Source: Balanoglossus misakiensis (Eukaryota > Animalia > Hemichordata). From it: DNA of 64,000 nucleotides. Made by a program: the position numbers and the translations under genes. Shown piece by piece: positions 3-64,000 of this stretch. The notes beneath the pieces are model-generated. The model worked only from the letters and a program-made list of their open reading frames with translations, searched no databases and was not told the DNA's origin. How positions within the stretch are numbered: position 1 is the stretch's first letter; each line of letters begins with the position of its first letter. The stretch covers positions 1,929,027 to 1,993,026 of the forward strand of contig CM082588.2 of NCBI GenBank assembly GCA_040954595.2, given 5' to 3'.

Positions 3-404
3 AACTTGACGATCCGAGGCACGCAGCTAAGCGACGACGGCTCCATGGTGACGTGCGCGGTGGCGAATGTCGCCGGCAGTTCGACCGTCAGTGCAATCTT
101 GCGTGTGCGGCCTGTCGCGATGACAACCGAAATGAGCTGGCTCAACCCACCAACACTGGGCCCGTCTGCCGACAGCAAGATTTCAGTACCGGGGATGCAC
201 CACAAGGATAAGCACGCGCTGCTGATTGGAGTAACCAGCGGAGGCGCCATTTTGTTTTTCGCCGCCGTTGTTTTCGCCGTTTCTGCGTTCGTCTGTTCTT
301 GTTGGGACAAAAAGAGGGGGAAAGCCCGAAATAATGGAAGAATTCGGCACGCCATCTGGTGTTCGAAAAACACCACCAAGCATAACTTGCCCACACGTGT
401 ATAA
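3..404 (+). CDS. 3' end of an IgSF type-I membrane receptor (last Ig domain, stalk, TM, short tail); 5'-truncated by the window edge
   Basis: The frame is open from position 3. NLTIRGTQLSDDGSMVTCAVANVAGSS matches the E-F-G strands of the third Ig domain of the paralogs (compare LTISRLTIFDDGMVVTCIAGNIIG in 50423). It is followed by a hydrophobic TM (ALLIGVTSGGAILFFAAVVFAVSAFVC), a basic stop-transfer (KKRGKAR) and the C-terminus PTRV*. Confidence 0.88.
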   Translation, partial: NLTIRGTQLSDDGSMVTCAVANVAGSSTVSAILRVRPVAMTTEMSWLNPPTLGPSADSKISVPGMHHKDKHALLIGVTSGGAILFFAAVVFAVSAFVCSCWDKKRGKARNNGRIRHAIWCSKNTTKHNLPTRV

Positions 405-3400
405 ATGCAGAATATAATGATTATTTCACGTATGGTTATAAAAAGTTTTAACCAGTCTTGCCCCTGACTTATCATATATCAGAACTTTAATAGCAGAATA
501 TTCGGTAGGCCTAGGCCTAAATGTGGTTTCTTTACCAAGTTAGCAAATATCTGTGCGTTTCTTTTTCTGTTCTATTTTTAAAGTAGTAACGGCCTGTGAG
601 TCGATCTGACCAACGGATCTCATTTCAACCATCCACAAGGTTTTCAGATCGTTAATCAAACTCTACGTAACCCTATCCATCATCAAAACATTTATTACCA
701 CTTTAAAGTCCACTTTGTGATGTCTTTATAACATCAATCCAAATTTCATATTCCTGAATTACATTTCTTTTCACATATTTAGCAGCTCTCAAAGTTACTG
801 GTTTTCTGCTTTGAACTGTCAGCAAATTTCCTTAGTGCAATACTAGTGTAACTCATACAATCGGCATGGTTGAAACACTGATACTGGTTCTTCTCAAGTA
901 TCTAGATTCTAAGGTTGCTATTGACCACAAATTGTCGACAGATGAGTAGACAGACCAGGGGCGCCATCAGTGGTTGGTGGCGTTCTTGGTTGTGTTCACG
1001 TTTCCGAGTCGCCGCCTACCTTTGATCGCGCCCTCAATCAGTAAGAACAAAGTTCACTTTCGTGTTTAGGTTAAATTTGAATTAGTGATTTCCTGATAGG
1101 GCTGTGAGGTCATTGCTTCCCCAGGAACACTATCAGGGGAAACATGATGAATCAACAGTTTTCGTAATCTTGTCCGTTTTTGTTGATGATATGTCGCACA
1201 GCTATGCCCGTTGTTGGGCTGATGACTCCTCGATTTTGTTGAATGTGTATATCTTGTTGGTAGAAAAAAGTATAAACATCCCTGCACAGAGGAAACCAGG
1301 CATGATAAGCCCAGTTCCTGTTTGCCGGAAAGGTTGAAATAGATGTGGATATACATAATCGTGCAGTGGGCTGGTTCCTGACCGATTTCATTTTCCATTT
1401 TAGGACCACACATTGGGTATTCCTAACACATGGGATATGTTTCTGTGGTTGATAAGAGTTATGTTTATCGGCCAATTTTTTTTACAATGAACGACGCCCT
1501 TGTATTTCCAGCTGCATCACCCTCCAGACGACAAAACAATCACCTCACTAAAGGTAGAACCGGAGAAAACAAGAGATTTTTGATAATGACAAATATGCAT
1601 CCACCTCTCTCGTAGAAGTTCTGGAAGAGGCGGCGCGATTCAGAGACAACAGAGGAGGGCGTCCTTTCAGTTCCTATTAACAACATTCGTCGGCAAAATA
1701 TTACATTCCAATGGCTTCAGTTTGTGTATACGCTAGTTAAGACCAGTTTATATTACTGTGCGCACTGGATTTGCGTTACAACAAAAACACAGACGACATG
1801 TAAACATTTCCTCGGAAATCAATCCGCCCTCGTCGTAAAACGACCCAGTTAATTGACAAGCCGATTTCCCTAAGCGGTTAATTGCTCATCAAACGGACCT
1901 TATTTTATGAGATAATATCCGGCCAGCAATCTGGCTAATCAATACTCATCAACTAATTGCCGTCAAAACACGGTCGCATGAAACCCCCATTGCCTTTAAT
2001 TTTATGACCATTGGCCATAGTGTACCTAATAATTATCTACGCTGCTATAAAACTCCAAAACTCCATCCACTGTACCATACCGCTTTTTATTACCCAGTCA
2101 CGAAAACTAAACCCCGCCCTTCTTTCACTTCTCCCTCGAGATTCTACGATTACCACCCCGTAGGTCCGATCTCAGACGACCCCCCCCCCATCTTCACTTT
2201 CCAGCTCGCCAACCACCATCACTGTCAACAAGTAAATACCACTTTCTTGATGACGAGTCCAGCAGCCTGCGCAAAGGAAGTCGGGGCTTCCTCTATAAAA
2301 CGTTATCAATCTTTTTTTCCTGCAACACACATCGACCAAAACTCTTCCTTATCACGTATCTCCTCGGGTTTCTCTGCGTCTATTACAAGCATCTGACTAC
2401 ACTCAGACCCGACAAATTTCTCACTATCACCGCTGATACTAATGGCCAGGGGGGTGGTTTCGAGTCGAGAGCTCTTGATGTTCACCAGTCTTTCCACTCG
2501 ATTGCTCTCTGCGTGCCACAATAAAAAATGGATGTAATCCAGACCAGTACAAACATCCCGCGTGAGAGAGATTGCGGCTTTTGTCGGAATTTTTCTCTCG
2601 ATACATGTTCAAGCACTTGAAGAGGCGACAACCATATCAAGCTCATTTTTAATCCAGAATTTTTTTTCCAGTGCATTGTGTGTTGACCGAAAGAGAAGAA
2701 GAGTTTAAGAATGATTGCAGTTAATGTATTTCGTAAAGAGCCTGCCATCAACTCCAAATCACTCGACGGTCGTAAAACTTTCCTCGGACAAAAGCTCGTA
2801 AAGATGGTCGAATGGAGAGTAACGCGTTGCAGGAAATCGCACTTGAAATTGTCGGCGCGAGGAGAAGACGCGCCCGATTGGCCGACGAGTTTGTTGGTTA
2901 TTTGAACTGGAAGTTGTTACCACGCATGTACAGTCTTTAATTGCCAGTCATCAAAACATTGATGTTTTATTGTCAACTGCCTGGCAATATAACCATGACG
3001 TTTCGAACAAAACATTGGATGTCGGGCGATACCTCGCTTCCGCCACCCGATATGTTTAATTTCGACCCCGTTGGCCCAGCAAGGGACATATTCTACATAT
3101 TTCCCGACAAAGGTGGGGTTTAGGGTATCGCTAGAATGATCCGACCGTAGCAATACAGATTACTTTAAAGCCCCAAACGTGGAATTAGTGAACTTTTGGG
3201 GGATACAGGTGTTATGAGGTTGTTGAGCAGCTTGGTTTTAAATTAAAATTAAATATGATGGATGAGTTGTTGCTTTTTTCTGTACACAGGCACGACCTTG
3301 AACGTGTGTACGCTGTGTGGCTGCAAATATATCGAACAATTGGCCGGGGTTTGGGTTGTGAGTGTACGTGTCTCCCTGTGTGTGTACTTCATTGCGCCGA

Positions 3401-5074: not shown

Positions 5075-6466
5075 ATGTACAGCCTGCATCGGCTGCCGTT
5101 GACGTTCCTCCTGCTGGGAGCGGCGATCACCGTCAGCGGACAGACTGGCTTTGCTGCGTCGCCGACCAATACACAGGTGATCGAGGGCAGCAGTGTGACT
5201 TTGGGCTGCGTTATTGCAGCGGATCCGAGCAGACAAAAGTACGTGCAATGGATCAAAGGCGAAAAAGCCATCAGCGCCAACTACACAATCAACACCCAGA
5301 GACTTGTGGAGGACTTTCAAGTAAGTGAACCGTCGCGTTATCAAATCATTGGTGATTTTTCGAGGGGCGAATTCAATCTTCATATTGCGAACACAATCGA
5401 GTCACAAGATGATGACACTTATAAATGCATCCTGGTCGGCCCTTTCGGACTACTGTCAATATCGGATGAAGCCCGCTTGTCAGTGGCGAGTCCTTCCGTC
5501 GACCAATATCCCCTATGTTCGCCGACGGAACTGAAATCGAAGTACGAAGAAGGGGAGCGAATTCGGACCGAGTGTGTGTTCCGTCATGCCGATCCCGCCC
5601 CGGAACTGCGGTGGCGATACGCCGATAGGATCTTTCCCGGCCACCGTGCGTACGCTTCGCTGCCAGACGTTCGTCAGGAATGGGTGTTATCGTACCAGGA
5701 CGACGGGGCAGTTTTCACCTGCGAGGCAGTGGGATCAGCTTTCCCGACGCCTCAGACGTGCCAAGTTGGACCCTTGAACGTCCAATACAGGCCCAGGGTG
5801 ACCGTTCAGCCTTCTATCTCCAACGTGCTGGCAGGGAGCACTATTGTCTTTACGTGCACGGCAACATCGAATCCGGCACCCGCCGCTTACGTGTGGGAAA
5901 TCAACGGCAAAGTTGTGATCGACTCGTCGAGGAAGTACTCGTTCTCCGATAACGGCAGGGTGTTCACCGTCAGCGACGTGGGCGACGGCGAGGACGGCAT
6001 CTCCGTCACTTGTCTGGCGTCCAACAACGTCGGTCTCGGGGTCTCGGAAACGCCGGCCAGAGTCAAAGTGTTCCGCAGCGAGAGCGAGCGAGAGCAGAAC
6101 ACGAATCTGAGGACGGTCACCCCAACATCGCCAGAGAACATTGAACAGCAAGAGGCAGACCCCAAAACTCTTGCGATAATAGTGGTGGCCGTAGCCGCTG
6201 GCCTGGCTGTAATATTTTCCATCATAGTACTAATCTGCTTTAGGAAAACAATTAGCAAGTGCTGCCAGTCAGGGATTTGCTGGAGGACTAACAAGCCCGT
6301 GGAGGTAAATATGGAGAACAAATTTTCCAACATAGCCGAGCTGAGCACCATGATTGCTCTTAAACACAAACTCGAACAACTCGAGGACGACAACGAGAAG
6401 CGAAAAGAACGCGGAGACTCGGTCTCCACTATGACGCCATACACACCTGAAATTACAATTGTCTGA
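5075..6466 (+). CDS. Single-ORF IgSF type-I receptor, 463 aa: signal peptide, V/I-like Ig, C2-like Ig, I-set Ig, TM, tail ending in a PDZ ligand; nephrin/Kirrel-like
   Basis: Signal peptide MYSLHRLPLTFLLLGAAITVSG. Three Ig domains have the canonical C..W..C spacing (VTLGC/VQWIK/DTYKC; TEC/LRW/VFTC; VFTC/YVWEI/VTC). Domain 1 has the nephrin-like RYQIIGDFSRGEFNLHI. TM is LAIIVVAVAAGLAVIFSIIVLICF and the protein ends ITIV*. Confidence 0.95.
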   Translation: MYSLHRLPLTFLLLGAAITVSGQTGFAASPTNTQVIEGSSVTLGCVIAADPSRQKYVQWIKGEKAISANYTINTQRLVEDFQVSEPSRYQIIGDFSRGEFNLHIANTIESQDDDTYKCILVGPFGLLSISDEARLSVASPSVDQYPLCSPTELKSKYEEGERIRTECVFRHADPAPELRWRYADRIFPGHRAYASLPDVRQEWVLSYQDDGAVFTCEAVGSAFPTPQTCQVGPLNVQYRPRVTVQPSISNVLAGSTIVFTCTATSNPAPAAYVWEINGKVVIDSSRKYSFSDNGRVFTVSDVGDGEDGISVTCLASNNVGLGVSETPARVKVFRSESEREQNTNLRTVTPTSPENIEQQEADPKTLAIIVVAVAAGLAVIFSIIVLICFRKTISKCCQSGICWRTNKPVEVNMENKFSNIAELSTMIALKHKLEQLEDDNEKRKERGDSVSTMTPYTPEITIV

Positions 6467-9400
6467 AGTGCGGAGGGACAAGGAAAGGAGGCGTGTTAAT
6501 TTGCAGGTGATAAAATCTAAATGCCTTGTATGTATATTGCACACAGGCGCTGTAGATAGCTGTCTGGGTCCCCGGATGAAAAAGAGAGCTACAACTCATT
6601 GGTGTGGTTTTAATCCTGATCACACACAAGTGACTTGCTTACAAAAGCAGTGGAAATCAATCGCGTTTCTGCGCTGTACTGAAAATTTACAAGTGATGTT
6701 TTTTATTGTATTATTATTTAAATAAGTCTTGACAAATCTTCATCTTGCTGTCACATAATCTCGAGACAATCCATTGGTGTCATGTGACCTAATAGGTTTT
6801 TTTCCGAGTGGGACACTCATTTCATCTCAACATTATTCAGTTCATCCGACAAGTGGTTGTAATTATTAATTATTTTTGAGAGTAACTTTTCATATTATAT
6901 TTTTAAACAGAAGAGAATGTTCTTATTTATAAGTGTGATGTCCGTGAAACGCCGTCTTTTTTGTTAATTGCGCTGTTGTTGTAAACATAGTTTAAATTCG
7001 GATAATGAGTATAGGTGGTTCAGAATTCAGCCGCACATCCGATTTTGCGCAAAGTCTGCAGGCGACAACGAGAGAAACTCAAAACCCGAAAATGTTTCGA
7101 AGCCAACGGCTGCACGCATGACCGAATCATGTTCAGCCTGGCGTCTTGTTTGAGTTTGTTTTGTAGGTGCGGAGTACACGGTTTCACTTTGGGATATTTT
7201 GTAAATATTAAGATTTTATACAAGCGCTGTAAATAAACCCGCACCGTGGGAACTCCTATACCTTTTCGTTTATCGAGTCTTTGTTCCATCAGGTCTAACT
7301 TTTTCTCCCCTGTCTGCTTTGTGTGTGTTTTGATAAAATAAGGCACAATGGCGAGTGGGTCGGTCGGCCTACAGAGGAGGTCAGAGCAGGGGGTGGGGGA
7401 AACACTATATATTTGGTGAAATTAGTGCAGGTTCTGGACGACACAATGCGTGAATGTTCAGGGCGGAACAGTGAAACCTGTTGACACGAAAATAATGACA
7501 TTCATCTTTCGTGTGAAGCTGCGTGACCGACAGAAGAATTCGGTGCGCCCACTGGTCCAGAACATGTTGGGTCCTAAAACCTGGGCGAAATTATCACCAG
7601 TCTGTAATCATTTACAAGAACTCATAAATGGCTGAGCAAATAACGATATCAGCTTACTATGACATAATATCATGGACCGATTATTTCCTTTAAAAAAATC
7701 GCAGCTGGTTTTCAATATGGCTCATGATATTTTCGCTGCTGTATTTTTACATGACCGTCAAACACAATGGATTGACTGTACACCGTGTGAGATTGTGAGG
7801 CTATGGGCTATAGCTTTGAAAATGTGCGCGGTCACGGATATCTGATAGGGTTATGAGCAGACGACGAGAAATGCGAGCGTGCAACTTGAAAAATTAATGT
7901 GAAATTTATCGTTCCGACGGCCATTTCTCACGTAGTTGATACAGCTTCCGGATTATGGTCCATCAGGGGCGAAGTGGTTGGCAATAATTCATGGTGAAGT
8001 TCGCACATTTCAATTTTACATGACATTATTTATGGGATCTAATTATTGATGTTGACTCTTGAACAACAAGTGCTTCGCCATGATGGGAAACTAGCGAGTG
8101 TACTCATCTAATGTAAATCATTCGGGAATGGATTGTACACACAGAAACCGCGCCATGGTCGTAACGAAGTTATAATGCGCGATCATTCCAATGTTAGCGA
8201 CGAGGGCATTTGGGAAATTTCCCAACAAAGACTCTCTGTTTTCGCTAAAGGTTAAAAATGCGACTCTGCGGCCTTCCGTATTTGACCATCGCGACTCGGC
8301 AAACACGCAGAGAAATTCAGAAATTCAAGCCAATTAAAAAGCTGAACAGCGCATTCTGATGTAACCCCGCATCAGCGTGAGCAGATCACCAGGCACCACA
8401 AACCGTGCATGTTTGTGTGGCGGAAGATTGGGATGTCGGGCTCAGCGTTATCAGATGAAAAACCAGACTGCCCTGTAGCAGTGCCATATAACAGACAAAA
8501 GCGGGATCTCTTGGCTTATATCGACCCTTCAAAATGGATAAATCTACTTCACAAATGACATGGCTACCACATATATATGGTAGATGCTGGTCAAGGGTCA
8601 GTTATCGGTCACTGAAGCAGGGGGAGAGAGAAAGAGAGAAAGAGACTACTATAGAACCAGCGGGAATGACGGATGTAGTGTCTCCTCAGTCGACCATAAC
8701 AGGACCGAGTTAAAATCGAACAGTTGTTTTCATGGATGACCATAGCCTGAACTAATTTAGGGGATTATGATCACCCAAGCGAACTATTAAACGGCAAACG
8801 TCCTCCCAGTTGTGCACAGTATAAGGGTATACTATGCAAATCGTATCGATCTGCAGATTTCACGTAATAATACATAGGATCCGGTGAGGGAACTGGGAAG
8901 GTGGGATACCGGCGCTGTTTGTGGTTTTTCAATTGTTATTATATAATAAGCCTTAATATAATAGCAACCGGGCCAAAACAGACTTCGGGTGCTCAGTTAC
9001 TCGCCGTTTGCCAGAACAGAAATGACGAAGATGGAAAGTCTAAGCTTACATTACACTTTATCGATAAAGCTCTCAAGTTGCACAGTGCATGTCACGACGA
9101 GTGACCATACGTAATCAGGGATTTGAGGGGATCACACATGATTTGATAGCTGTTAAGAATCAAAATCTCCACAAACAGTAACGATCACTGCATGTTGGGA
9201 AAGAGTAGATTTAACCCGAATCCAACCGCGTGGACAGTTTTGAGTGTAAGCGCGTTGCCTATCGGGAGGTCAGCGACATAGCCCCCGTCGCAGCTGTATC
9301 CGATTCTGGCAATTCAAAGACGGCATTGTACAGTTTGACATTTTAAAGACACCTTCTCACCATCTATCACACACCAGTGTAATCTTAGCGACGTCTCCTA

Positions 9401-12400
9401 TAAGCTAATGGGCGGATAAGAGGCAAAAATTTACTTTATCAAGAGTATAAGTTCGAAAGCCCGAGCACACGATATTTAAAAAGTCTCTCATAATCGGATC
9501 CAATTTCCAATGTCAAAATCCAAAAGGTTGCAACACAAAAATACGCCTTTGTTTAACTTAAACACGCAAAGCTTTATCCTGCCCTGCCGTGCCGCACTAC
9601 ACAGAGGAATGCGTGGACGGGGGAATTTCACAGGCATTCGCCCCATTACAGTCGATACCGTGGGATCGAGATTCGGGCCCGGCCTTGTAAAGGTGGTCTC
9701 CGCTGCAACTGAATACCCCCTGTATTTTTAATGAATGAGTGTTACAACACGCAATGCAAACACGCCACAAAGGATTTACTCTGCACCGACGGGTTCGCCT
9801 GCAAGCATATTTAGTACATGCGAGCATGGGACAAAAAAAACCCAGAAAATCGGCCGACCGACAACCTTTTCGGACCAAAACCAGGTCTGGTTTGCGAAAT
9901 CGGGAGAAAACGAAACGAGTTTTACTCTTCGGGGTCTTGTCGGCAGAGACATTCAATATGGGTCCAAATTTGGTGGCGTGTTCTCTCGCAGTGTATAATG
10001 AATACAATTACTTGGTAAGCACCAAACTTAGCGGCTAAATTGCAAACTGAATAGGTATCAACAACAATGGGTATACACACCGTGGTAAAGAGGGAGTCGT
10101 ATTCACTGTACGTTTAAATTGCCCGTGGGGGACCCACCGTGATAGAATAACTGGACAAAAGGACTGACGATGATGAAAGGCGAACTTCGCCGTGCCACCG
10201 TCCTATAAATAAAACACGGCATAATGAAAGTGGCAAAAAGCCCAAGGGACGGGAGCATCTTGACTTCAAACTTTTACGTCACCATTGAATGTGGGCAGTT
10301 TCTGCATCCCACGCTTCCGACCAGTCACGTGACCAGTGTCGGTCGAAAAACCATGACGTTGCAGCGAACCGGAGTTTGACCCCCGACGGGTTGTGACTAA
10401 GTTTATTGCCAACTAAAGATAGTAACACCACCCCTTCAACAAACAAGGATTTCCCTGAGTGGAGTCGGACATACCGAATTTCATAAACGTCACGAGTTCA
10501 CGACCTGACGGTGGTCTCCTGCATTGCAATGGGGAGCCCGCCATCCGGTTGAAGTCAGAGATCACATGTTCAGAGCATAAGTCTTGCTGCTTTTTTGTTT
10601 TCCCCTCTCAAACACCTGCCAAAGTTGGAGCGAAATCGCCCTTGCGAGCAGCCCTTCTCACAAGAATCAATCGCACGTGTTGGGAAACACCTCCACACTT
10701 TGTCCAATACATTCATTGAGTGTAATTATGAAGGCAAGATGGGTTGTTTTCCTAGGGGAATTAACTCACCTTGGAAAGAAATTCACAATGAAATTAATTA
10801 AGTACCCCAAACTGGAAACTGGAGTTCTGTATAGAACCACAAGAAAAATAAACTTGGCTTGATTGGTATTATCGTGGACGTGGTATTATCGAGTCATTAA
10901 TTGGCAGGCCGACCAATGTTCGCAAGAGAAATGCCATTATCACGTCGAAGTCGTGTTTGCTCTTGGGCTTCTGTGGCCAGAAGAGACTCGACTTGAACTT
11001 GGCAATCAGCAAACCTACTTTAGATTAACGGCATGTCGAATCGCGTCCTTTTCACACTACTCAGCATGTGAGGACTCGGGAGTGGGCTGTGATACGTCAG
11101 TGACGACGATTATTGACAATCAATTAGATTGAAAACAGGGAGGAAACTTAAACAAACCTCAATCGATTGCCGTACAAACACAACCCGACTAAGACGTCGG
11201 AATACATCGATTGATCGTGATTCAAAGCGCAGCCACTCGAAAAAGGTGATGTTTTGGTTTGTTGGCCTGGGAACAAAAGAGGCAAATTGGCAAGGTAAAA
11301 GGTTCTGTGTTCGCTAAGAACTAACAACAATAGAAAGGGGTTGGATTCAGATTTGGGCAAATGACTCCTGGACTATTTAATATGACGGCATCAATTCGTA
11401 TTGCATCACTGTGAAAACACCGTGGCCGTTTTTGGTTATTTTTAGCTAGTGATACTTGCGATAGAATGAGACGACAGAAAGAGCGTACACAACAGGTGGT
11501 TATACTCGTTCACTGTCAACCGCTTCAAACTATGTGATGTAAGAAAAAAACAAGACCACTACAATGTGTGGCTTGTCGAGAGTTCGTATCGTGGAACGGT
11601 TGACACTATACGATCGCGTCCGTCCGTGACGGGATGTTCACCAAAGAGGTATTACACGAGACGATAGCGACAGTTCCCCGGCAACTGTTGATGTCGCCGC
11701 CTGAATAACAAAACGACAGAGACCCGTCGAACATCGACCCGTTCGTACAAACTTCCCAGTGTTTGTCCTTCTATAAATGTCTATAGTTTACCTGACAGAT
11801 CAATGAGGTATTTCTCACCCCAGTCTCAGAAAAAAGACACCCTTCCATCCTGGTAATTTAAAAACAAATAGTTTACAATGGGGGCATAGTGTTATTCGAC
11901 TCAGTCGTGTGAAGTCCGATATCTCCGGTGGAAATGGAAAGCGAAGTCCAAGCGCGAGGATTTCGCTGAAAAGATGAAACACACCTTTATTTTGAAAGTG
12001 GCGAAAAACAATCACCGTGCGAGCGCATGTACGTCGCCGCCGCCACCTTCCCAAGGATGTTCATTCTTAGCGTTTATTTGTTTACAACGCCTTGTCAGGC
12101 GAAGGAAACGCTCTTTGAAGAGAAAAATGTTTGCCCGGTAAAAGCAAGGTGACAATGCGAGAGTCGAATCGAGGAAGGGAAAGTGTTTAAACTGGTTAAG
12201 ACCGAAACTAAGTAAATAGGGCAACATTCCTCAGCCGTGATCTCAGTTTGGAGGGGGGAAAACTGTGACGTTTGTTCCGGTCGACTCAACCAAAACGCTT
12301 ATTTGACATCGTATTCACAGATCCCAGTCATCGTAGCATCTGCCAACAATGATATGCTAATTTATACGAGAGAAAAATTAAACAGTTATTCCGAAACAAT

Positions 12401-15400
12401 TCGAAGCCTTTTCACACAGTATTTGATGGGTACTTGGTATGTTAAATTATGCACACACTGAAATGGACACCTGTACTGTCAGCCAGGAAGCGGGTTCTTT
12501 AATTGATCTTCACACCCGGCCCTGAAAATGTCGAAAGTGGTTCAAAAATTCCATGATGCGTTTTGTATGAATCATTCTTTTCATGGCTACAGTCCACCGT
12601 GGTTCCATTGGTATAAAACGACGGACATAACATGTCCTTCAAGATGTTTCATCAGTCGTCACCGTGTCTGTTGCTAGACTATGATGATATGAATGCGGTG
12701 CACCGCGTGCTGCCGGCGGAGGTCAGGTGACTTCACAACATAATGTCACTATTCCTACAAGTGCAATTATTCCCTACAATAGAACCCTACAAATCATGAA
12801 TATCATAAACTAGACAGAAATATTCCGATTTTGTTGCCCAAAACGCGGCAGTTTTTGCCACCATGACGCGCGCGCGTAAACTGACAGAAACCACAAACAG
12901 CGAATGACCAACAAGGCGATAAATGTATTTACACTTTCAATCGTGTGTTATAATACCGGCAAAAGTATCATCAGCAAAGTACCGGCGCTATATGGTATTA
13001 TTCAGATAGAGTTACGTAATCAATATCTCATGACAATAAGATTCAAGCTGGAACTGCGCGCTTATGCAAAACAGCGCGGTGTCAATTTCATCTCATCATC
13101 ACAGCATACATTATGAAAGACAATGAGAACATGATATATGTTATTAGATTTCATGTAATGCCCGCGTCATGAATTTTTCATTTTTTTGGCTGAGAGCTGA
13201 TTCTGTCACGACCAAGCCATGCAGAAGTCCTCCACAGCTTGGAATTGAATGATGGAGATGAACCGCCAGTGAAAACGGCATCGACTTTGCCACCGACAGC
13301 TGTCGTATACGTGTCGTCATAAATTATAGGGTACTCCGCTCACAGCTGCTGGTTGTTCAGTCATAAGGAATTCTCCAGGCAATTATGGATGATAGGTAGA
13401 ATGGGGGTAATACAAAGCAAAGGGCATCAAGTACCCCCCTTTTAGAGTTTATATTATGGCGATGCCAATTTAGCAATTTTGGATAACGACAATCGACTGT
13501 CTACTTATGAACTCAAGCCAGATTATCAGACATTTTTGCTTTAAACTGACGGACAGTTAGTTATACGCGCTCGATCAGAATCGTTGCAATGCCCGGTGTG
13601 TCACTAATATCTTCAAAATCGTCAAGATGAAAAATTCATCATGATTCTAAATTTAAAAGTTTCAGATAGCATCATTTTTTGTGTGCTCAGCTATCCTCTC
13701 CGACGGACAGTCGGTGCTCGATCGGCAACTTCAAAGCCACACTCAGTGTGTCACATTTTCAAAATCATCAAGTTGTATTCCGATTTTAGACTTTGATTAC
13801 ATCATGGCATTGTGCTCAACAGTAGATGTGTGCATATGTTTCTGTATTGTAGTGGTATGAGAAACGCGGAGGTAGGTTTGAGATTAGGGCCACACTGATG
13901 AGAAGCAGACACCCATTTGTACCCTCATATACAGTCTGGAGGGCATCACACACAGAACCGTTCAATGACAATAAAGGCGAATAGCAACCGATAAGATAAA
14001 CCAACTCTCCTGAATTAGCCATAAAATATCTCGAAAGTCTTTTCATCTTATATTTCTGTTTATACGAGTATCCGATAAAAGGAGGACCCATGTCAAATGG
14101 CAGTTAAATGTTACACGGAAATGCCCTAAAGGCGTACTGAACCGACATATTTGACCATCACGTGACCATCCCGAGTGAACACTGGTGAAAGTCACCTCCT
14201 TGATAGAGAGATATGACGTGATTGTGTGGTGAAGAAAATTAAACTAACTTCATAGCTAGTGTACATGTATTTGTACACATATTAATTTTCAAAGATATAC
14301 CCTGGGACACTTTGCCAATTATTCTGTTACAGACTTTATGGATGGTCTGGTCCCTGCCAAGCAGTCGACGATGAATGTTCGCGTCGACATGGGCCGATAA
14401 GTTTGAATACGGATCAGATTCTTTCTGTCGTGTCGCAGACAGTTTTGACAGGCAGTTTTTGTCTTGCCTTTCTTAGTAGCACAGAGTGAACTGTAATTGG
14501 ACCACGGAGTCCGCTCCATGCAACGAAACTAAACAATCATGCGGTTTATGACAGTTTTGTTTCTGTTCTGTTGGTCAGAAACACCACAGCCGCTTAAGCG
14601 CTTTGCGAAATTCAACCCTACGGACAAAATCAAACTCAATATCATCTCCATCAACCTATAATGCCACGAATGGACTCAGTAAGCACTACAGTAAAATGTA
14701 ACTGAAGCCTCGAGCTCCAATATGGCGACCAGACTGCCAGGACAAAAACAGACACGCCAGAAATTATGGCTGTGCGCAGTAGTGACATCGATTAAACGGT
14801 TATTTACTGCAGATTCGGGAGCAATTTTGAAACATGTGACCTCTGATCCGAACCAAAGTATATACAACAGTTTCTCCTAAAATATCCGATTAGCTGCTCT
14901 GGTATTACACCCTGTACACCGTAAACATGTCATGTTTAACGACGGGATATCATTTTTTCTACAGCAGAGACAGAAACGCAGAAGCAATTTTATCTCTATG
15001 GTGATACCGCTAACTTCGAAATAAAAAAAACTTTGGCCAGCAGTCTATACTTGACCAACAAACATTCAGAAAGCGAAACCATTACGTCGGTAAGAACCAC
15101 GTCTAAGCATGAAACTGCCTATCCAGTGTATGATACAATGATATGACTAAACATCTTGTACTCAACAGGCGTGTAAAAACACAGCAGCGTGTGGAACGCT
15201 GCTCTCAGAGGAAATTACAAGCGGCCAGGATTAATTGAAGAGGTGGCCGCGGACCAAGACTTTTCCGCCATTTGCTCTATATAATTCGTTTGATTAATGA
15301 CTACAGTCTTCACTCTATCATATCACCACGAGAGAAGCTGGCCACTTAGTCTGGTCCTGGTGTGGACCGCGCGAGCAGGCGCACCGAAAGCAAGAACTGG

Positions 15401-17010: not shown

Positions 17011-20000
17011 CGTACACATGCATCTATTTATGTCACATTAATATATAATGAAAGATATAAATTATCATTTGTTCTAATCTTTATAAATTGAAGAAGACAA
17101 TTGCAATTTCTAATAATACAGTTCCTGGTGGTCGTCTATTTTTGATTGGTAATTAGTGTACAAATTGAATACAATCATTTAAAAAGATCTAGTCGATTTG
17201 AATATTCCCCCATTTTTCAGATAAATTAGGGTGATAAAATTTAAAGTGAGCCCATGATTGCTGTTAATGATCATGTTCAATTAAAACTCCTCGGCCTGTG
17301 ACTGAATTATATTTGTGAGGGTTCGTTCAAGTCGCATCACAGATAAAAACCCGTTTTAAGAGCAATGTCTGAAAAAAGCGTCGGTTATTCAAAGAATGTG
17401 ACCTTCGCGCTCAATTTGGAGATTTTTTCCGAAGATTCCCACACTCCATTTTGAGAGTGAAGTAGTGACATCCATACGGAATCGAAACTCTTCGCTTTTC
17501 GTTTGATTTGTTTTAACGGGTGACTTATTTTAGCCCGTACATCCGGGAAGTATCGTTTTCTGGTGTAAAAAGATGACATTTATTACATGTAGGTTATTTT
17601 CGTTCGTAGCTGGTTCAGCGCCATCGCAATCACTCATGAACACGCCAGGGGCGTCTGCTGCTTGATTGTTCCCAGCTTCTCGTTGCCGATTGAACTTTGA
17701 CCTCTTGGTGGGGTCACAGTCAGTTAATTTAGTGCATCTTATGACAGCCACGCATTGAGTTGCATGTCACATGCATTCTGCTTTGTCTATTCTCTGATAT
17801 GAACAAACTGATGAAAAATACCCCATAAATAATCAGTCCTTTTGTTATATGCAGAGGGTCGCATTCTTTTCATGCAGCTACATTACCCCTCTATGCAATG
17901 TTGTCACGGGTTTATGCGCGCGACACCAAACAGCAATGACAAGATAAAAATACCACAATAACACAATGTGCAGAGAATGCAGACATACCATATTAGTTTT
18001 GTTTAGCTTTGAGAATGTCACAGTGTTTTTGTTTGAATATGAGAATGCTGGCAATTTTTACGGGTACGTGGAGACCAGAACTTTTCTCACGTACGCTTCA
18101 GCAGTTTTGGCATCATCATAATGGCGCCCCTCGGGTGTCTTGCTTTCGGGGTGTTTGGGTGTAGAAGTTATTTCGGGCATGAAAGTCATAAATATGAATC
18201 TCACGAGCGTTCCAGCCTCTTTTCTGTGCATTTTGCAAAAACAGATCTACTTGAAAAATATCATATTCAACATGACCAATTCTAACCAGGCTGCTTCAAC
18301 CTTCCCAGGACAACTTCTCCACTTCCCCCTCTTCACAAAAGAGCGCCTATCGACGTCACCTTTCCAAGTGCCAATTAAGACACTATTTTAGGGTCGTGTT
18401 TACCACTAAACAAAACAATAAAAGCCACAGTTGTCTGGCAGTTGCAACATCCCACTGCACACGGTCAAATTGTCCATCGACGCGCGACTGATCGACGAGC
18501 AGACCACAAGAATTATTGGTCCCTTGGACAATGAGGTCCATACCGCGGGCACACAGGTGGGACGGACCACTCGCAAATCTTTCAACGCACCTTGTCGGCG
18601 AAGACGACCCATCAGTTGTCTTGTGTGTTTACAAGTATTTCGTCAATGCATGGTATGATGGTTGACCCCAGATTTTGGCCTATGGCAACTCCACGCATGG
18701 TTTACCGGCTTTAAAAGTTGCCAGAAAGGCTTATAAAATTGGCACCTCGATGCATCCAAGTCTACCGCGTCTAATGTTTCTGTTTTGTTTTGGATGTTTT
18801 TATCTATGAGTGTGTTTACACCTCCCAGTAAATTATCTCGTTTAACATTAGAGTAACCATGGCGGCAACGAAACTATTTGAACTTCGGTGTTCGCCCAAG
18901 TGGTTCATTGTAAATCAATGTTAAAGCACCTGTCCAAAATGAACCCAGCGATGACATTATTGGTGATGCGTTCACTGTCAAGTTCCGCGGTCAAAAAAGT
19001 ACGGTCTTGACATACAGAGTACTTTTGGAAAATTCCTTGCAAAGCAATATTTATTTTCCCTTGTGTCCGACCTAACTCTGACTAACTGTGTGCGGAGCGA
19101 AATGGCCAATCAATGGGCGGAGGGACTGTGGTCCAATGTGTCTGGTAAACATAGTAAAAAAGTTGACCCGAACCCGAGCTCAGTCGTTGTCAAAAAAAAA
19201 ATAGTATACACAACCAACTCAGTTTCAAGTTTTGCTAATATAACGAAACAGTAGCGGGATTTGTGGTAACGGTTTAGTATCTGATAAGGCTTATCAGTAT
19301 GGGAAGCCATTAGTGCTGTCTCCGTTGACTCGTTAATTTCTCGCGAAGACCAATTGGCCCCCGTGGTTCTCGCAGTTGAGGACTGGAATGTATCGCGCAG
19401 TCGCCATGCTATCTGTCAATATAAATCTTTTCATGGAGATTCTGTTCTAATTCATCGCGTTTTCTTGCCGAGATCTGGGGTAATATATTTAAGAGGATTA
19501 GAGTATCGCCTCGTTAATATTAAATTTGTTTGGGTTACTGTGTGCGAGAGATCATAACGCGCGCGTATTTGCACTATATATCAAATACATAGATACGCAT
19601 ATCGTGTTATATATTGATCTCTTGTCGCTCCTTCTTCTTGTACCTATGACGTATCAATCATTAACAGGGGGTGGGGGTTGAAACGTATCCGAAAAGAGAG
19701 AGTTTTTTATCCAAATGCAAATGTTGAAATCAAATTACTAAAAATACGAATTGACCCCCTCTCTCGTCCAATCACCATCAACCAATAATGGAAATAATTA
19801 ATCATAGACCCGTACTTTCAAGTTCCGACGGGAAAACTACTTAATATGTATCGAATCCAAGTTGGAACTGAGCATATCAGGAAGTACTCAAACACCACTT
19901 AAGTTTTTTGTCTCTCTAAACGTCAGTCATCACAACTCGGATTGAAAAGAAAAAAAAACACGAGCGAATCTCTATTTTCGCCTTCTCTAATTGCTAAGGG

Positions 20001-21169
20001 TGTTAATGCGTTTATTCAGAGGCCATCATTACATGCTATTGTCTATTACAAGTTGAAATAAACACAATTAACGGTTCAAACAACACCCATTATTGTGTTG
20101 TTTTATGTTAGAAAAATACCATTATTCGGGGGAAAAGCCGGATTTTGGATTTTCACCACCTCCGTTACAATTACAACTCATGTTATCGATTCTGATGTGA
20201 TGTTCTTCGATTTTTGCCTGAGTGTATTTGTGCTGTACGCGGCGGCCATCTTTGTCGGTCACATTTTTGTCTTTTGTGGACAGAAGGTCTTGAGGGCCAC
20301 TCAGCGGGGAAGTAGCGTGCTCGGCAACCACCTGTTTGCACTAATCCGATTTTTTTTCCAGACCTACATGGCCCCGCTCGTAAAGTCTCCAAGTACACGG
20401 CGCTGCGATAATGATCTCTCCCACGTGCCTCGCCAAATGCACATGAACTAGGCGATGAATCGGGCATTAAAAGCAATCGCTTTTACTTACAGTGGTCGTC
20501 GGGCGATTCAGATATGTAAATGATTTTGTATGACCATCTCCGGCTCCCCAGCGCGTCGATCGGTCACAAATGACCGCCTCGTCTTTCAACGCGAGACCCC
20601 CGTCGAAACTGTACGACCTCGCCTGTCTGCGACATGAATGGACGCGTCAATATACTGTAGACGACAGTTGAAGTGCGCTTTATTTGGCCAATGCTGTCAG
20701 ATAAAACACCACTCTGGTCATTTTATCTTAGTTTATCGCGGCGAGCGTGTTGCTAGGTTTGCCGAGGATCACTTGAAATATTTGATCGCAGTTGCTAGGC
20801 GAGTTTTGGGGTGATGTCTGAAAATACAAACGTTTGTTTTTTGTCCGTGTAAAGAGCTCTGCACACATAGAGTTGTCACAGTTTGACGGACAAGTGCAGA
20901 CCCAGACTAACATGTAACCGTTGGAGCCAGCCATGTTTTTCATGGTCTGTCGCTGCATGAGCGGATTTTTCTTTGACGTTCAAGGCTCTACAGATCTGTC
21001 AGCTGTGCATGGATCATGGTTCTGTTTTCTCCCCCGAAGTGTTAATCCGTGACCATGTACATGGTATACATGTACTAGTACCTCCATGATGGAAGGGTGT
21101 TGATTTTCGTATCAAACGTTCTGTGACATTGTCTGTTCATTTATATATCCTGCCTGGTTTTATCCCCGA

Positions 21170-21270
21170 TTCTCTCTCCCCCCCCCCTCCCCTCCTGCCC
21201 CTCTCATCCTGTCTCCGCCTTCCTCCTTTTCTCTGCCTGTCTCTGTCTCTCTGTCTGCCCTCTCTCTCTA
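21170..21270. repeat. CT-rich polypyrimidine / degenerate (CT)n-(CTGT)n microsatellite
   Basis: tctctctcccccccccctcccctcctgccc...ctctgtctctctgtctgccctctctctct. Confidence 0.8.
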
Positions 21271-24200
21271 AGGTGGATTGTATCCATATCCCAGCTTCAC
21301 CACCCAGAATCCCTTTGCTATAGAATTGTGCTACGTGCACCCGCAGCGATTAACCGCCTATCATGAACATCTATTGACTGTACACGGATATTGGATTCCG
21401 AACTCACCGTGACCGGAGTATATCGATTTGCGAGGAACAAAACCCTAAACAATCATAACAACAAATCAAAGAAAGCGTCTGAGGAGATCGGTTGGCGTCG
21501 TGCCTTCGATTTTTAATTATTTCAATTATACGGTCTAATCAAACCGTGAATCCGTCCTTTCATTGTGTCAAACAGGACCCGGGCAGCGCGTTTAGGAAGC
21601 GAAGTACCAGAAAAATGGGACCGTTTGTTGGCCGCATCGGTTCTGTCAGCCGTAAGTAATTTACTTACTGACCAATCCAAGGACACGTGATGGGATTTTG
21701 TATGTGAAGAGTAAACATGGCATTCAATCAAAGATAGAGGGCAGACAACCTTGTACCGGATTATGGGAATTAACCACCGCGGGGCACTCGGTCACGAGAA
21801 CTTCCATATGTGAGAGGAAGAGTGAATATACTGTGTCCGTGTGTGTGGACATAGCCCCTTGAAGGACTGTGGTTTGGGTGGCGCATATTTTAGTACTCAA
21901 AGAAGTTCACACTTCGCGATCAAATTCCACCAGCAGAGCATTGTGTATTGTGAGTGAGTTTCAGTATGTGGACACAGCTGAAACGTCCAGTTCTTTTTCA
22001 TCATTAAAACGCCATTTTATATATTAAAAGCTTTGAAGCTTTTTAGGAAGGCACTTTGACACTGTCCAATATATCTTGTTTTCCCATCTCGTTAAGGCGC
22101 CAGTTCTCTTTATCTGGAAAGTAATTCTGGAATTCGAATTTTGAAAAAGGTGGATTGTGTCTCATAGATCATTGTGCCCCGAGATCGCAGAGGCAGTGTG
22201 GTCCGCGTTTTTTTTCTATTCCTGGAGGTGACGTCACTCTCTGATCTCAGTGTTTTGGTCATGTATTCGTGTGAAACTTTCGGGTCAATTAAACAGGGAA
22301 TGCGAGCGTCGCATAGTTGTTGGGAAATTTGCATTTTTTCGACAGAGTAGTGGGTGAGTTTGAAGGCGTGGGACTCCCCAACTCAGCGCTTGACTGCACA
22401 GTTGTGCAAGTTTGCTCTGTTTAGCCTTTCGGCGGAAGAAATACGATCACCGATAGATCAAAGTACGCTCAACTGTGTATATATCATTTCTCTACTCTTT
22501 TCGGGCGATTTTCACGACTTGAAATAAATCGAAATTTTGCATATTTGAGTTTGCCCCTATGCCTGACCTGCGTATCGCGGCAAGTGGTCTCGGAATATTT
22601 GTACCGACAAAACTCAACCAAATTATAACCTCTGCTACCGTTTGGGATGATAAAAATTCATTTTATCATTGCAGTGGAAGTCCGTGATAAATCGTCCCAC
22701 GTGGGTGGTCCTGTAAATGTTTCAGAAAATATCATTTACAGCGGAACATGTCAATTCCCTGGACACTTATTGGCAATATATTAAATTAAATACGCGTCAT
22801 GTAAAGTGGTTATGCTTCGCTCCCGTGGGGGAAATAAAATATTAAGTTTCGAATTTGTGGTTCATAATTGTGTGGGGAGGGGCTGTACTTTTATGCCACC
22901 TTAGACTATAAAGAAGGAAGAAATTAGAATCTAAACTACACAAGGAAACCTAGCTCGAGCTCTGTATATCGCGACGAGTGGTCTGATACGGGGGAGCCTC
23001 ATTGAAAGTGGTCAGTGGTTAAAGATCCGCACTCACATAACCACCTGCTTTGTTTCTGGAACAATAGCAGCTCAGAATGCCTCGCTCCGCACGTGACGTG
23101 TCGTAGACAATCGGGCTAATTTATCGCCGACAAAATTCAAAATAGTTAATTAGCAATCAACTACAATGTCAGAATGACAGTGCTTTCGATTAATTAACCG
23201 GATTTTCCAAGATCGGCGAAAGTTTGCAATAAACAGGTCAGACGGTTAACCTAAATTATGCGGGTATCTAAAGAAATATTCTCTACTGCAGACATGCCAT
23301 TTCGCCGTTTTGTCGCTTCCCTAGACTGTTAATTATTTGGTAAAATTACTTTCTTTTTAACCCCATCTACTTTCCCCCATTGACTGTTAGACATTGGGAT
23401 ATCTTGCGATATTTACGGCAAATGCACAATCTGAACTCTCAGTCATGTGTCATTCCAGTGCGATGCGTTTTATTTTTAACCCGGAAGGAGAGGAGGGGGG
23501 AGGGGGGGGGGTCAAAGAATGCCTAACATTCTCCAGTCGCCAACTCGCAAGAAAGACTTGATTAGCGAATATTGTGCCGGTGAAACGAGCGGAAAAGAAT
23601 CTGGCAAATATGCGCGTTCTGTTCGTTTTGTGATTTCACAATAACGTGAAGTATCCACGATATTTCTCCAATCAGAGCCAGGGCTCGATTCTGTCATTAC
23701 TTCTTTGAACGGTTTTCTTTTAACCCTCGTTTCTTAATTAAGATCTCTAAGGTGATGTGTAAGATGCGTGAACTAAGAACCAAGAATGGCGACTCTGTTG
23801 GAACACGCCGCTCTGTTAATTAATACGCGACTTCGCATTTTGTCAGCTTATTTATCGAGAACACAGCGCCGTCTCCAAGTAACCCTGGGTGGTGCCACTT
23901 GGTCGCTATGGAATGGCGGTGTCGTTCATTCGCGAGACCTGTTTTAATTTTGCCCTAACGATATGCATACTTGATTTATTTGAGGTTACTTAAACCCGAA
24001 TCACAAGACTACACACCCTGAAAACAATGGGAAAAACTTCTATTAAAATAATAACAAAAATCATCAACAGTCTCTGTGCGTACATGCTCTTAAGCGTTTT
24101 CCTCTCCAGTTTCCGACCCCCGTCGGGTCACTCTCGGTTTATCTAGACTTAGCGTGCATAAAAGAATCTTCATGAATCCAAACCTCGTTGAAAATGCCAC

Positions 24201-50422: not shown

Positions 50423-52273
50423 ATGGAGCGGTTGATTCGGATGATCCAATCGATATCGCTCTCCCTCGTTTTGCTCGGAGTCTTTTCCGTGGCCGCCGAG
50501 GACCCTTTCTTCAGGACGCAACCAACAGATACGACGATCGACGAAGGTCAGACGGCTGTCCTACGATGCAAAGTGTCCGGCATCAGTGGTATACACTACG
50601 TGCAATGGGTTAAAGAGGGAATCGCCATAACCTTTCCCAACAGGACTACTAACAATGACCGACTTCGCAACATTTGCCAAGTCGGGGAACCCTCTCGGTA
50701 TTCGGTGGATGGCGACTTTGCCCATGGTGAGTTTAATTTAAAAATTGTCCACACGCTCAGTGCAGAAGACAGTGACTCTTACAGATGCCTTGTATTTGAC
50801 GATTTTGGCCCGGTTTTGTTTTCTTCCGACGCGCAATTGACGGTGCGCACGCAATCGGCCGCCAACTACCCTGTATGTCTGCCCACTACTATACGGAACG
50901 CTTACGTTGCGGGAGATGTACTTCATACGGAATGTTTGTTCCGAAATGCTAACCCTTTACCCGAGCTGACCTGGGCCCGGAACAACCGCTACATATCACG
51001 AGGTGAGTTGATCTACCCAACCCTGGCGGACAAGAAACGAGACTGGGAATTGACGGCAGAGGATGACGGCGCCGTGATTACGTGTCAGGCGACGGGGTCG
51101 GCCATCTCCGGCTCACAGACCTGCGTGATTGGACCCTTGGTTGTATACTATGCCCCGACGGTGACCATAGTGCCCGAAATCGCCGACGTCTCCGTTCACG
51201 ATTCCGTCATGTTTACGTGTTCGGTGGCGGCCAATCCGAAGCCAGACGCGTACTTTTGGCAAACGAACGGAAACCCCATCGATCTGGCCACTGGTAAATA
51301 TACCATATCGCCCAACGGGAAGGACCTGACTATTTCGAGGCTGACTATTTTCGACGACGGCATGGTCGTCACCTGCATTGCGGGAAACATTATCGGACAG
51401 TCGTCGGCGAGCGCCGTTCTCTACGTGCTTGAAGCACCACCACGGCCATCGACGCAACAAACCGTCATCGTCACCGATGCACCCGAACCAGAGGTTCGCG
51501 AAACCACCACAGCCGCGCCGCCACTACCACCGATACGGCCGAACCCACGACTACCGACGACAACGGCCACCAAGACCAATACTCCAAGCAACGCAGACCC
51601 CGACAGCGATTTGGTATTCGCCGGTAACTCCGATGAACCACGGGAGGTGAACAACGGCCTCGCCCTCTCCGTGCCCGTGTTGGCGGCTGTTGTCACAGGC
51701 AGCGCCATATTCGCCATAGTGCTCGTGGTCCTTGTTTGTGAGCTCACTAGATGGAACAGAAAGCGGAGGAAAGCACGGCAGGAGGCCGAGGAACAACGGG
51801 TCACCGGATACTATGACGTGAATCTCAGTACTGCACACGCCGAAGACGAATGCAAACAAAGAGTAAACGAATGGCTAAAGAAGTCAATCGACGATAAATA
51901 CTATTTTATTGACACCGAGCAATCACTAACAATCAAGCTCTCCAGAGCCGGATCCACCGGCCAGGTTTCGAATTTGTCCTCTCTGGAAAGCGGCGTCAAC
52001 AAAGACCAAGTGGACGTTACCAACGACACCCAGCACCGCGCGAGGGACAGCGTTGCTTCCAACGTCCAACGGCACCACTACGACGAGATCGCCAACTACA
52101 CCGAGAGGGGTGAGACATTCACCGACGGAACGGACAGCGGGGTGAGCGGACACGTCTACAGTATTCCCATAGACGCGAACTTCGCCCCCGGAAAGGAATA
52201 CTACCACCACCACCAGACTGTGATTTCCCCGTCGAAATTGGTCAATTACGGCGTGATAGACACGCACCGGTGA
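50423..52273 (+). CDS. Single-ORF IgSF type-I receptor, 616 aa: 3 Ig domains, Pro/Thr stalk, TM, tyrosine-rich tail with ITSM-like, YDEI and ITIM-like motifs; closest paralog of 5075
   Basis: Signal peptide ends SLSLVLLGVFSVAA. Ig domains: VLRC/VQWVK/SYRC; TEC/LTWAR/VITC; MFTC/YFWQT/VTC. Domain 1 has RYSVDGDFAHGEFNLKI. TM is VPVLAAVVTGSAIFAIVLVVLVC. The tail has TGYYDV, YDEI, YSIP and VNYGVI. Confidence 0.95.
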   Translation: MERLIRMIQSISLSLVLLGVFSVAAEDPFFRTQPTDTTIDEGQTAVLRCKVSGISGIHYVQWVKEGIAITFPNRTTNNDRLRNICQVGEPSRYSVDGDFAHGEFNLKIVHTLSAEDSDSYRCLVFDDFGPVLFSSDAQLTVRTQSAANYPVCLPTTIRNAYVAGDVLHTECLFRNANPLPELTWARNNRYISRGELIYPTLADKKRDWELTAEDDGAVITCQATGSAISGSQTCVIGPLVVYYAPTVTIVPEIADVSVHDSVMFTCSVAANPKPDAYFWQTNGNPIDLATGKYTISPNGKDLTISRLTIFDDGMVVTCIAGNIIGQSSASAVLYVLEAPPRPSTQQTVIVTDAPEPEVRETTTAAPPLPPIRPNPRLPTTTATKTNTPSNADPDSDLVFAGNSDEPREVNNGLALSVPVLAAVVTGSAIFAIVLVVLVCELTRWNRKRRKARQEAEEQRVTGYYDVNLSTAHAEDECKQRVNEWLKKSIDDKYYFIDTEQSLTIKLSRAGSTGQVSNLSSLESGVNKDQVDVTNDTQHRARDSVASNVQRHHYDEIANYTERGETFTDGTDSGVSGHVYSIPIDANFAPGKEYYHHHQTVISPSKLVNYGVIDTHR

Positions 52274-63712: not shown

Positions 63713-64000
63713 ATGGCTCGTGTGAGGTGGTTTTTGATATCAGTGCTGTGTCTGTTGTCAGCTTCTCGGCCATTGGCTGCCAGTGGTGATTACCTTAACT
63801 GCTCAACATCTGCTGACGATAGGTCTTTGCAAGAAGGAGACACTATCAACCTTTCTTGCCAAAGCCAAGGCGGAGAGCCAAAAGCGGACCTGACATGGCT
63901 GATTGGGGGTCTGGGATTGTCCTCTGTAAGGTCAAACTTCTCCAACACAATAACCACCGAGATCGTACTATCACGAAGTCACAATGGCGCGTTGTTTGTT
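63713..64000 (+). CDS. 5' end of another IgSF family member (signal peptide + C2-like Ig domain); runs off the window and is absent from the ORF track
   Basis: Manual translation of 96 stop-free codons: MARVRWFLISVLCLLSASRPLAASGDYLNCSTSADDRSLQEGDTINLSCQSQGGEPKADLTWLIGGLGLSSVRSNFSNTITTEIVLSRSHNGALFV. This is a signal peptide followed by EGDTINLSC..GGEP.ADLTW..LSRSHNGALF, typical of CD80-like C2-set domains. Confidence 0.9.
   Translation, partial: MARVRWFLISVLCLLSASRPLAASGDYLNCSTSADDRSLQEGDTINLSCQSQGGEPKADLTWLIGGLGLSSVRSNFSNTITTEIVLSRSHNGALFV

Follow-up and report, generated by a model that had tools for sequence, protein, structure and literature searches.

A tandem cluster of immunoglobulin receptors in an acorn worm appears to belong to an old hemichordate–echinoderm family with opposing tyrosine motifs

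We analysed a 64-kb stretch of the genome of the acorn worm Balanoglossus misakiensis (GenBank assembly GCA_040954595.2, contig CM082588.2, positions 1,929,027 to 1,993,026; hereafter the window, within which all coordinates are given). It carries six receptor loci, named here G1 to G6, all on the + strand. On balance, we favour the view that the window holds a portion of a tandem cluster belonging to an old hemichordate–echinoderm family of immunoglobulin (Ig) receptors, in which G3 and G4 would be activating immune receptors and G2, G5 and probably G1 would serve in adhesion, self-marking or braking. Judged from its sequences, the family is likely to be an ancient ambulacrarian one, encoded in single coding exons and bearing tyrosine-based immunoreceptor motifs for activation (ITAMs) or inhibition (ITIMs), and its function is probably immune. 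We prefer this role to a cell-adhesion code, to engulfment of self cells and to allorecognition because paired-receptor clusters typically show what is seen here: ITAMs with the right spacing, ITIMs in pairs, two almost identical members of opposite sign and fast turnover of the activator. A reading made beforehand from the letters of the window (the sequence-only reading) had proposed a tandem Ig-receptor family with tyrosine motifs of opposite sign; this central claim is supported, and the family even holds a textbook pair, P0007 and P0049 of Ptychodera flava.

Three of the loci encode complete type I receptors: G2 (5075-6466; 463 amino acids), G3 (27407-29290; 627 amino acids) and G5 (50423-52273; 616 amino acids). 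Each runs from signal peptide to stop in one open reading frame (ORF), with a single transmembrane (TM) segment and three Ig domains that Pfam assigns, in order, as V-like, CD80-like C2 and I-set (V-C2-I). The sequence-only reading had counted six co-oriented receptor genes, uninterrupted where complete. The six loci and their orientation stand, but only G2, G3 and G5 are complete three-Ig receptors in a single ORF, and G4 (31137-32118) is out of frame. Evidence that the cluster continues past both edges of the window, as had been proposed, is limited to G1 (3-404) and G6 (63713-64000) being cut by those edges. The description of the Ig ectodomains as diverged paralogs holds: protein identity is 40% between G2 and G5, 26% between G3 and G2 and 23% between G3 and G5, and self-blastn detects no similarity among the window paralogs at the DNA level. 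The duplications that separated these three genes are therefore old.

The ITAMs carry the case for activating members. In G3 the tail contains YEVV (28904-28915) followed by the ITAM YKSL-x8-YMSL (28967-29014), which exceeds chance expectation (p 0.0014, 20,000 tail shuffles); the G4 motif, YKSL-x7-YMAL (32065-32109), is likewise rarer than chance (p 0.003, the same number of shuffles) and also has YEVV ahead of it. The ends of the two tails align with a score of 76, against 35 +/- 6 in shuffled sequences, a value reached by none of 5000 shuffles, and by this measure the two ITAM tails are homologous to each other. Of the claim that the tails in the window differ in sign, this is the part that survives; the ITIM and switch-motif (ITSM) matches of G5 are at chance level on their own, and the PDZ-type end of G1 is not conserved. 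After its ITAM, G3 has a Lys/Pro-rich segment (residues 545-585, about 29040-29165; KPKPK, KPKPP) that is absent from G4 and is a possible SH3-docking or membrane-binding region.

G4 had been taken for an Ig receptor in one ORF, which it is not: neither of its pieces matches any Pfam family, and the frame is broken after 31587. It consists of a signal peptide, a stalk that is about 50% Ser/Thr, a TM segment (about 31603-31665) and the G3-like ITAM tail. The same DNA was found as contigs in three sequencing runs of one sample, which may be the window's own source and are not independent of it. A contig of run X3 has 8 more bases at 31587, restoring an open frame of 329 codons, so that the frameshift may be a null allele or an assembly error. 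Among the differences of the other haplotype that were listed (40 of 159 substitutions and 12 of 25 indels), G4 shows in-frame indels, a change of one stop codon to another and three amino-acid changes outside the ITAM; within the ITAM there are two differences, both synonymous. The stalk contains a 12/39-base tandem repeat (31281-31496) with in-frame indels between haplotypes, and its length may vary. Small dispersed repeats, seen as pile-ups of numerous loose-ended contigs that are unrelated, flank the gene at 30753-30785 and 32692-32741. DAP12-type charge pairing was considered for G4 and rejected, as the TM segments of G1 to G5 have no charged residue.

Two other members of the cluster, G2 and G5, are more conserved. 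The best match of G5 is P0001 of Ptychodera flava, a model without a TM segment that is 75% identical over the ectodomain and 74-85% in each Ig domain. For its ortholog in Saccoglossus kowalevskii, P0002, identity is 46% at 97% coverage, with 47-61% in the individual Ig domains and 40% in the tail, and the Balanoglossus and Saccoglossus lineages split about 370 million years ago. In the trees, G5 and P0001, with P0002, form a supported sister group, as do G2 and its best match, P0005 of Glandiceps talaboti (54% identity over 98%; 54-64% per Ig domain; 56% in the tail). The G5 tail has 10 tyrosines, in motifs that include TGYYDV, HHYDEI, HVYSIP and VNYGVI; six of the 10 are kept in the alignment with P0002, and the ITIM and ITSM matches are conserved there. 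From its tail, G5 is a candidate inhibitory or adaptor-docking member, and its HHYDEI resembles the HDYSEV motif of an amphioxus inhibitory receptor that has been tested (PMC8211107).

The tail of G2 is short and ends in a class I PDZ-type terminus that is kept in P0005 (ITIV and VTIV, with TIV shared). G1 is the 3' end of a family receptor, comprising the end of the last Ig domain, a stalk, a TM segment and a 40-residue tail without tyrosine that ends in PTRV. Its best matches are P0050, P0013 and P0008, in a clade sister to G2/G5, and its terminus is unlike theirs, so that the PDZ-type end is conserved in G2, not conserved for G1 and absent in G5. P0008 and P0050, both from P. flava, are 94% identical, and one of them has a cut TM segment and no tail; a tail-less model of this type and the TM-less P0001 are possible secreted decoys, or faulty models. 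G6 is the 5' end of a family member in which the V domain is skipped, the signal peptide running into a C2-set domain as in its relative P0036; it matches residues 1-72 of P0036 and domain 2 of other members. Taken together, the orthologs of G2 and G5 in other acorn-worm genera, their sister positions in the tree and their conserved tails speak against a recent diversification of the whole cluster. The sequence-only reading had itself named conserved one-to-one orthologs with low polymorphism and neuronal or podocyte-restricted expression as evidence that would tell against it; for G2 and G5, half of this, the conserved orthologs, was found. By their sequences, the conserved members look like adhesion molecules.

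The finding is more interesting at the family level than within the window. We took a census of tail motifs in 31 TM-bearing relatives, echinoderm ones among them. Models that were TM-less or fragmentary were left aside, as were a near-duplicate, a fused model, eight cluster mates of P0014 that are nearly identical, four nephrin-like proteins and nine multi-Ig proteins of generic type. ITIMs numbered 32, in 15 of the 31 tails, with a shuffle mean of 7.9 and none of 2000 shuffles reaching the observed count; there were four ITAMs in three tails (shuffle mean 0.34, p 0.0005). A strict ITIM pattern, picked after the data had been seen, occurs 15 times in seven of the relatives (shuffle mean 0.74). 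ITIMs are clear in P0009, P0010 and P0049. Siglec/SIRP-like double motifs (LVYADL...TVYAMI, LVYAEL...VTYAEL) stand at the tail ends of P0028, P0038, P0046, P0032 and P0015, several of which fall in an echinoderm-containing clade.

Two P. flava proteins, P0007 (XP_070567944) and P0049 (XP_070567943), are four-Ig receptors that are 90% identical, with 88-97% identity in each Ig domain and the lowest value in the second V domain. Two ITAM matches are present in P0007; in P0049 the second tyrosine motif of both is changed, and the tail is extended with two C-terminal ITIMs. Their accessions are consecutive and their contigs are of 44.3 Mb each. If both models are correct and non-allelic, the two proteins answer to the definition of paired receptors (PMC5112662). 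In Glandiceps, the G2 ortholog P0005, the G1-like P0013 and P0010, which has four ITIMs, are all on contigs of 32.3 Mb, an indirect hint of one conserved cluster.

The single-ORF state appears to extend beyond the acorn worms. A metagenome contig, likely to be host DNA, carries (L001:588-2318) a complete family member of animal type whose 576 codons form a single unbroken frame. Since it is placed in the echinoderm-containing clade (SH-aLRT, an approximate likelihood-ratio branch test, 95), the single-ORF state would be older than acorn worms, provided that the contig is DNA, and on this evidence it is likely to be very old. The retroposed origin suggested by the sequence-only reading is unsupported, and the single ORF of L001 speaks neither for nor against it; any such event would have to be ancient. 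Two further hits of the metagenome scan were weak matches over one domain: L002, which reads as bacterial and was dropped, and L003. In RefSeq several relatives are labelled 'kin of IRRE-like', and relatives are also modelled as CADM-like. Our literature search found no description of such a family in hemichordates or echinoderms; subscription papers lay outside the search, and an earlier description is possible.

G3 differs from the conserved members in having no ortholog in the searches made. A word-indexed search found no homolog among the 7996 best candidates of 344-1098 amino acids, and a search of 1.84 billion representatives gave 44 matches at E <=0.001, none below 1e-30, the best with 29% identity (E 9e-15). 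Among these 44, names could be given to a further 10 clusters: P. flava contributes three, G. talaboti two, and the echinoderms Antedon, Holothuria, Anneissia, Acanthaster and Patiria the other five. The tree branch of G3 is 1.89 long, against 0.10 for G5, and by this measure G3 is the fastest-evolving member.

Allelic variation in G3 was read from run X3, which differs from the window at 31 sites: 12 in domain 1, seven in domain 2, five in domain 3, seven in the tail and none in the signal peptide, stalk or TM segment. The differences are concentrated in the Ig domains (24 sites, against seven in the rest; p 0.002), and domain 1 is the densest. Much of this comes from a two-path bubble at 27579-27702 (codons 67-89), where one path equals the window and the other has nine substitutions, four of them synonymous, and 12 extra in-frame bases, a four-residue insertion. 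In an AlphaFold model of the ectodomain (predicted local distance difference test, pLDDT, 86.9; predicted template modelling score 0.55; three Ig domains) the bubble differences sit on the C' strand, the C'-D loop and the D strand, and two further changes are on the FG loop. A fold search with the model returned generic three-Ig matches only (template modelling scores 0.23-0.41), singling out no family, and look-ups in the ESM Atlas led to generic Ig clusters. Full-length three-Ig structural matches include Necl-4, DIPs and IgLONs, as well as SIRP-alpha with a score of only 0.31.

A homodimer model of G3 domain 1, run without using an alignment, scored 0.43, against 0.02 for the best control, with a pLDDT of 82 and agreement between runs in at least 95% of contacts. 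The mark that it passes was passed by 21 of 30 solved pairs and none of 23 solved single chains in a microbial benchmark, and by 17 of 29 pairs and none of 30 single chains from eukaryotes; for animals the figure was 7 of 16, and where there was no older solved relative 1 of 7. The pass may come from the model's memory of Ig dimers. Isolated domains are known to pair artefactually through their edge strands. The predicted interface comprises residues 84-92 and is centred on Cys86-x-Cys88 (27662-27670), a motif absent from G2 and G5. From the model, it is possible that G3 forms a cis dimer joined by disulfide bonding, with its C'/FG side left free, and does not adhere in trans in the manner of nectins or Kirrels.

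Several results weigh against the immune paired-receptor interpretation. There is no matched pair in the window, as the paired-receptor claim for it would need: the ectodomains of G3 and G5 are 19-30% identical per Ig domain. The G5 matches, taken alone, are at chance level in shuffles (VNYGVI as ITIM, p 0.36; TGYYDV as ITSM, p 0.09). P0007 and P0049 are automatic gene models that could be uncollapsed alleles. The placement of G3 in the tree is not settled, and its grouping with the nephrin-like proteins is not rejected (approximately unbiased test, p 0.27). The allelic comparison is of one haplotype pair in mosaic contigs, run X3 and the window, and within it the ratio of non-synonymous to synonymous polymorphism (pN/pS) in the G3 Ig domains is 0.48, below 1. 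Domain-1 divergence (3.6%) is not above that of the 3' flank (3.0%; p 0.58), and with the bubble removed the Ig excess becomes marginal (p 0.049). Because domain 1 is at about the level of the flank and the tail is at 1.0% (p 0.006), the pattern is as much one of a conserved tail as of a variable tip. Outside the family, a Tyr-rich tail drives adhesion signalling in SYG-1 (bioRxiv 10.64898/2026.08.25.747070). Amphioxus Syk, which binds and phosphorylates an ITAM receptor, suppresses NF-kB (PMC13344425), so that an ITAM does not necessarily activate in the way known from vertebrates.

If the immune interpretation is correct, we would expect a ligand to bind domain 1, in G3 possibly on a disulfide-linked cis dimer, and to cluster the receptor. 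A Src-family kinase would then phosphorylate both ITAM tyrosines, and docking of Syk would lead to uptake or a defence response. Members with ITIMs, clearly P0009, P0010 and P0049 and possibly G5, would bring in SHP/SHIP and define the threshold. G2 could be anchored at junctions through its PDZ end, as an adhesion molecule or self marker, and G4 could be an ITAM signalling partner that lacks a ligand domain, or a receptor that displays glycans. Activating members would turn over fast, and adhesion and brake members would be kept. Going further, we tentatively propose, as a possibility that falls short of an even chance, that hemichordates and echinoderms share a large, true paired-receptor system of single coding exons. 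Matched ITAM and ITIM members would recur in it by tandem duplication and tyrosine switching, fast-evolving activators like G3 would track pathogens that exploit the conserved brake or adhesion members, and Ig-less genes of the G4 type would be adaptors.

Of the alternatives, a developmental or neural cell-recognition code fares best, and we still consider it rather unlikely. As with Dpr/DIP, Beat/Side, nectins and Kirrels, every member would be an adhesion molecule, and the tail tyrosines would dock Nck/Src-type adaptors for actin assembly and no immune effectors. Such a code would suit the retention of G2 and G5 across acorn-worm genera, with domain 1 (55%) and tails conserved, and the structural matches to Necl-4, DIPs and IgLONs; the layout of three Ig domains with a PDZ end is that of nectins and SynCAMs (PMC10084454), and SYG-1 too signals through tail tyrosines (bioRxiv 10.64898/2026.08.25.747070). 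It leaves unexplained, however, the well-spaced ITAMs of G3 and G4, the strict ITIMs among the relatives, the 90%-identical ITAM/ITIM pair and a G3 tail that is less variable than the Ig domains. We regard as improbable a set of engulfment receptors for dying or damaged self cells, for example in regeneration and not in the sensing of pathogens, with a Draper/Shark-like ITAM and a SIRP-alpha-like 'don't eat me' brake. The conserved ITIM-like G5 would suit a self brake, and SIRP-alpha is among the structural matches at its low score, but self ligands should conserve the activating ectodomain, and G3 is the fastest-evolving member. Acorn worms are solitary, and natural fusion is not known among them. 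Allorecognition of the Hydractinia Alr type, in which a polymorphic G3 would bind its own allele in trans and set fusion or rejection, is very improbable: a cluster of Ig genes whose tails bear ITAMs and ITIMs, a divergent domain-1 block with the share of synonymous changes expected of an old balanced allele and the passing homodimer model agree with it, but the model puts the D strand and its Cys-x-Cys at the interface and not the C'/FG side that holds most amino-acid differences, so that a cis dimer fits better, while solitary animals, a domain 1 no more divergent than its flank and a pN/pS that does not exceed 1 between the two haplotypes all speak against it.

A tblastn search of the window with 37 relatives (E 0.05) found only the known loci and no further family copies or pseudogenes. 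Pfam, applied to 66 of the 93 stop-to-stop frames of at least 90 amino acids (the 27 omitted overlap the receptor ORFs), returned only G6 and one sub-threshold match, in a search that shorter exons escape; there was no Rfam match and there were no notable repeats. The sub-threshold match is a weak one to P2RX7_C (E 0.007, below the Pfam cut-off) in a Cys-containing frame at 38535-39008 (+), possibly a transposon-related remnant. Between G2 and G3, over a gap of 21 kb, the AT skew is about +0.1 at 8000-13000 and about -0.1 at 20000-23000, with no ORF, Pfam match or repeat to account for it.

Ig receptors with opposing ITAM and ITIM tails hold a central place in the natural killer and myeloid cells of vertebrates and have been described in a hydroid and a tunicate; hemichordates and echinoderms are the sister group of chordates, and it is in these that our literature search came upon no such family. 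If the immune interpretation holds, immunity through opposing receptors would extend to acorn worms and their kin, and the mislabelled 'Kirrel-like' and 'CADM-like' models would be candidates for an arm of immunity so far missing in sea stars, sea cucumbers and acorn worms. On the more tentative proposal of a shared, true paired-receptor system, ITAM/ITIM balancing on nectin-like V-C2-I receptors would predate the split from chordates. G3, G4, G5 and P0007/P0049 are compact genes with which to ask whether deuterostomes inherited the balancing of activation against inhibition from their ancestor or re-invented it repeatedly.

The name 'nephrin-like', used in the sequence-only reading, fits database names and not the architecture, and a nephrin founder is unsupported on the same ground. 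Nephrin has nine Ig domains and one fibronectin type III (FN3) domain and Kirrel/Neph has five Ig domains (PMC10084454), whereas G2, G3 and G5 have three Ig domains and no FN3. The family as a whole has three or four Ig domains, no FN3 and many copies. Its likeness to Kirrel and nephrin lies in the N-terminal pair of V and CD80-like C2 domains, which matches SYG-2, Neph1 and SYG-1, and perhaps, going by G2, in a class I PDZ-type end. The tree is no decisive test here: three proteins that we label nephrin-like for their length and sequence make up a separate branch (100/100) and served as the outgroup, and no true Kirrel was included. The family is nearer in layout to nectins and SynCAMs (CADM, Necl), which share three Ig domains, a TM segment and an unstructured tail, with a PDZ-type end as in G2 (PMC10084454). 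Profile (E 6e-35) and fold searches both match Necl-4 over the full length, at about 16% identity. Nectins and SynCAMs are reported in PMC10084454 from tunicates and vertebrates only; unlike them, the present family includes ITAM tails and four-Ig, V-less and Ig-less members, and our tree is one without chordate sequences.

Among invertebrate systems, the Hydractinia Alr complex is also a cluster of TM-Ig genes with a V-set domain 1, ITAMs in several members and ITIMs in few (bioRxiv 10.1101/2022.03.04.482883). The genes of the Alr complex have several exons, undergo alternative splicing and in most cases encode an Fn3-like fold (same source), whereas the complete window genes are single ORFs of V-C2-I type with no Fn3 match and old conserved orthologs. 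Botryllus FcoR proteins are receptors of an invertebrate deuterostome with ITIM or hemITAM tails and allelic switching of sign (PMC12582321), which P0007 and P0049, if they are alleles, might parallel. Here, unlike FcoR, there are full two-tyrosine ITAMs, no fester-type partner was seen and no histocompatibility trait is linked to the genes. PMC11999971 gives an ITAM Ig receptor from oyster and, in its accessible part, does not mention the hemichordate–echinoderm group. Src/Syk/ITAM and ITIM/SHIP signalling are functional in amphioxus (PMC13344425, PMC8211107).

The vertebrate paired receptors, such as CEACAM1/3, the Xenopus Ceacams (PMC5112662) and Siglec-11/16 (PMC5701461), are clustered Ig receptors with ITAM or ITIM tails, as here. 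Opposing tails occur within this one gene family, and six of its loci lie within 64 kb; for the relatives, the evidence of clustering is indirect, from contigs and accessions. The window differs from vertebrate paired receptors in holding no matched pair, in its uninterrupted coding regions and in the common orientation of all its genes. A null G4, whether segregating or at the level of the assembly, recalls SIGLEC16P, a null of an activating member (PMC5701461). Homology to vertebrate paired receptors is not demonstrated past the Ig fold, nor is it to Alr or FcoR, and it is by analogy that we suggest that the family would work like all three. Highly similar ectodomains, which the window lacks, are found in P0007 and P0049, whose identity per Ig domain equals or exceeds the 80-93% given for pairs in Xenopus (PMC5112662).

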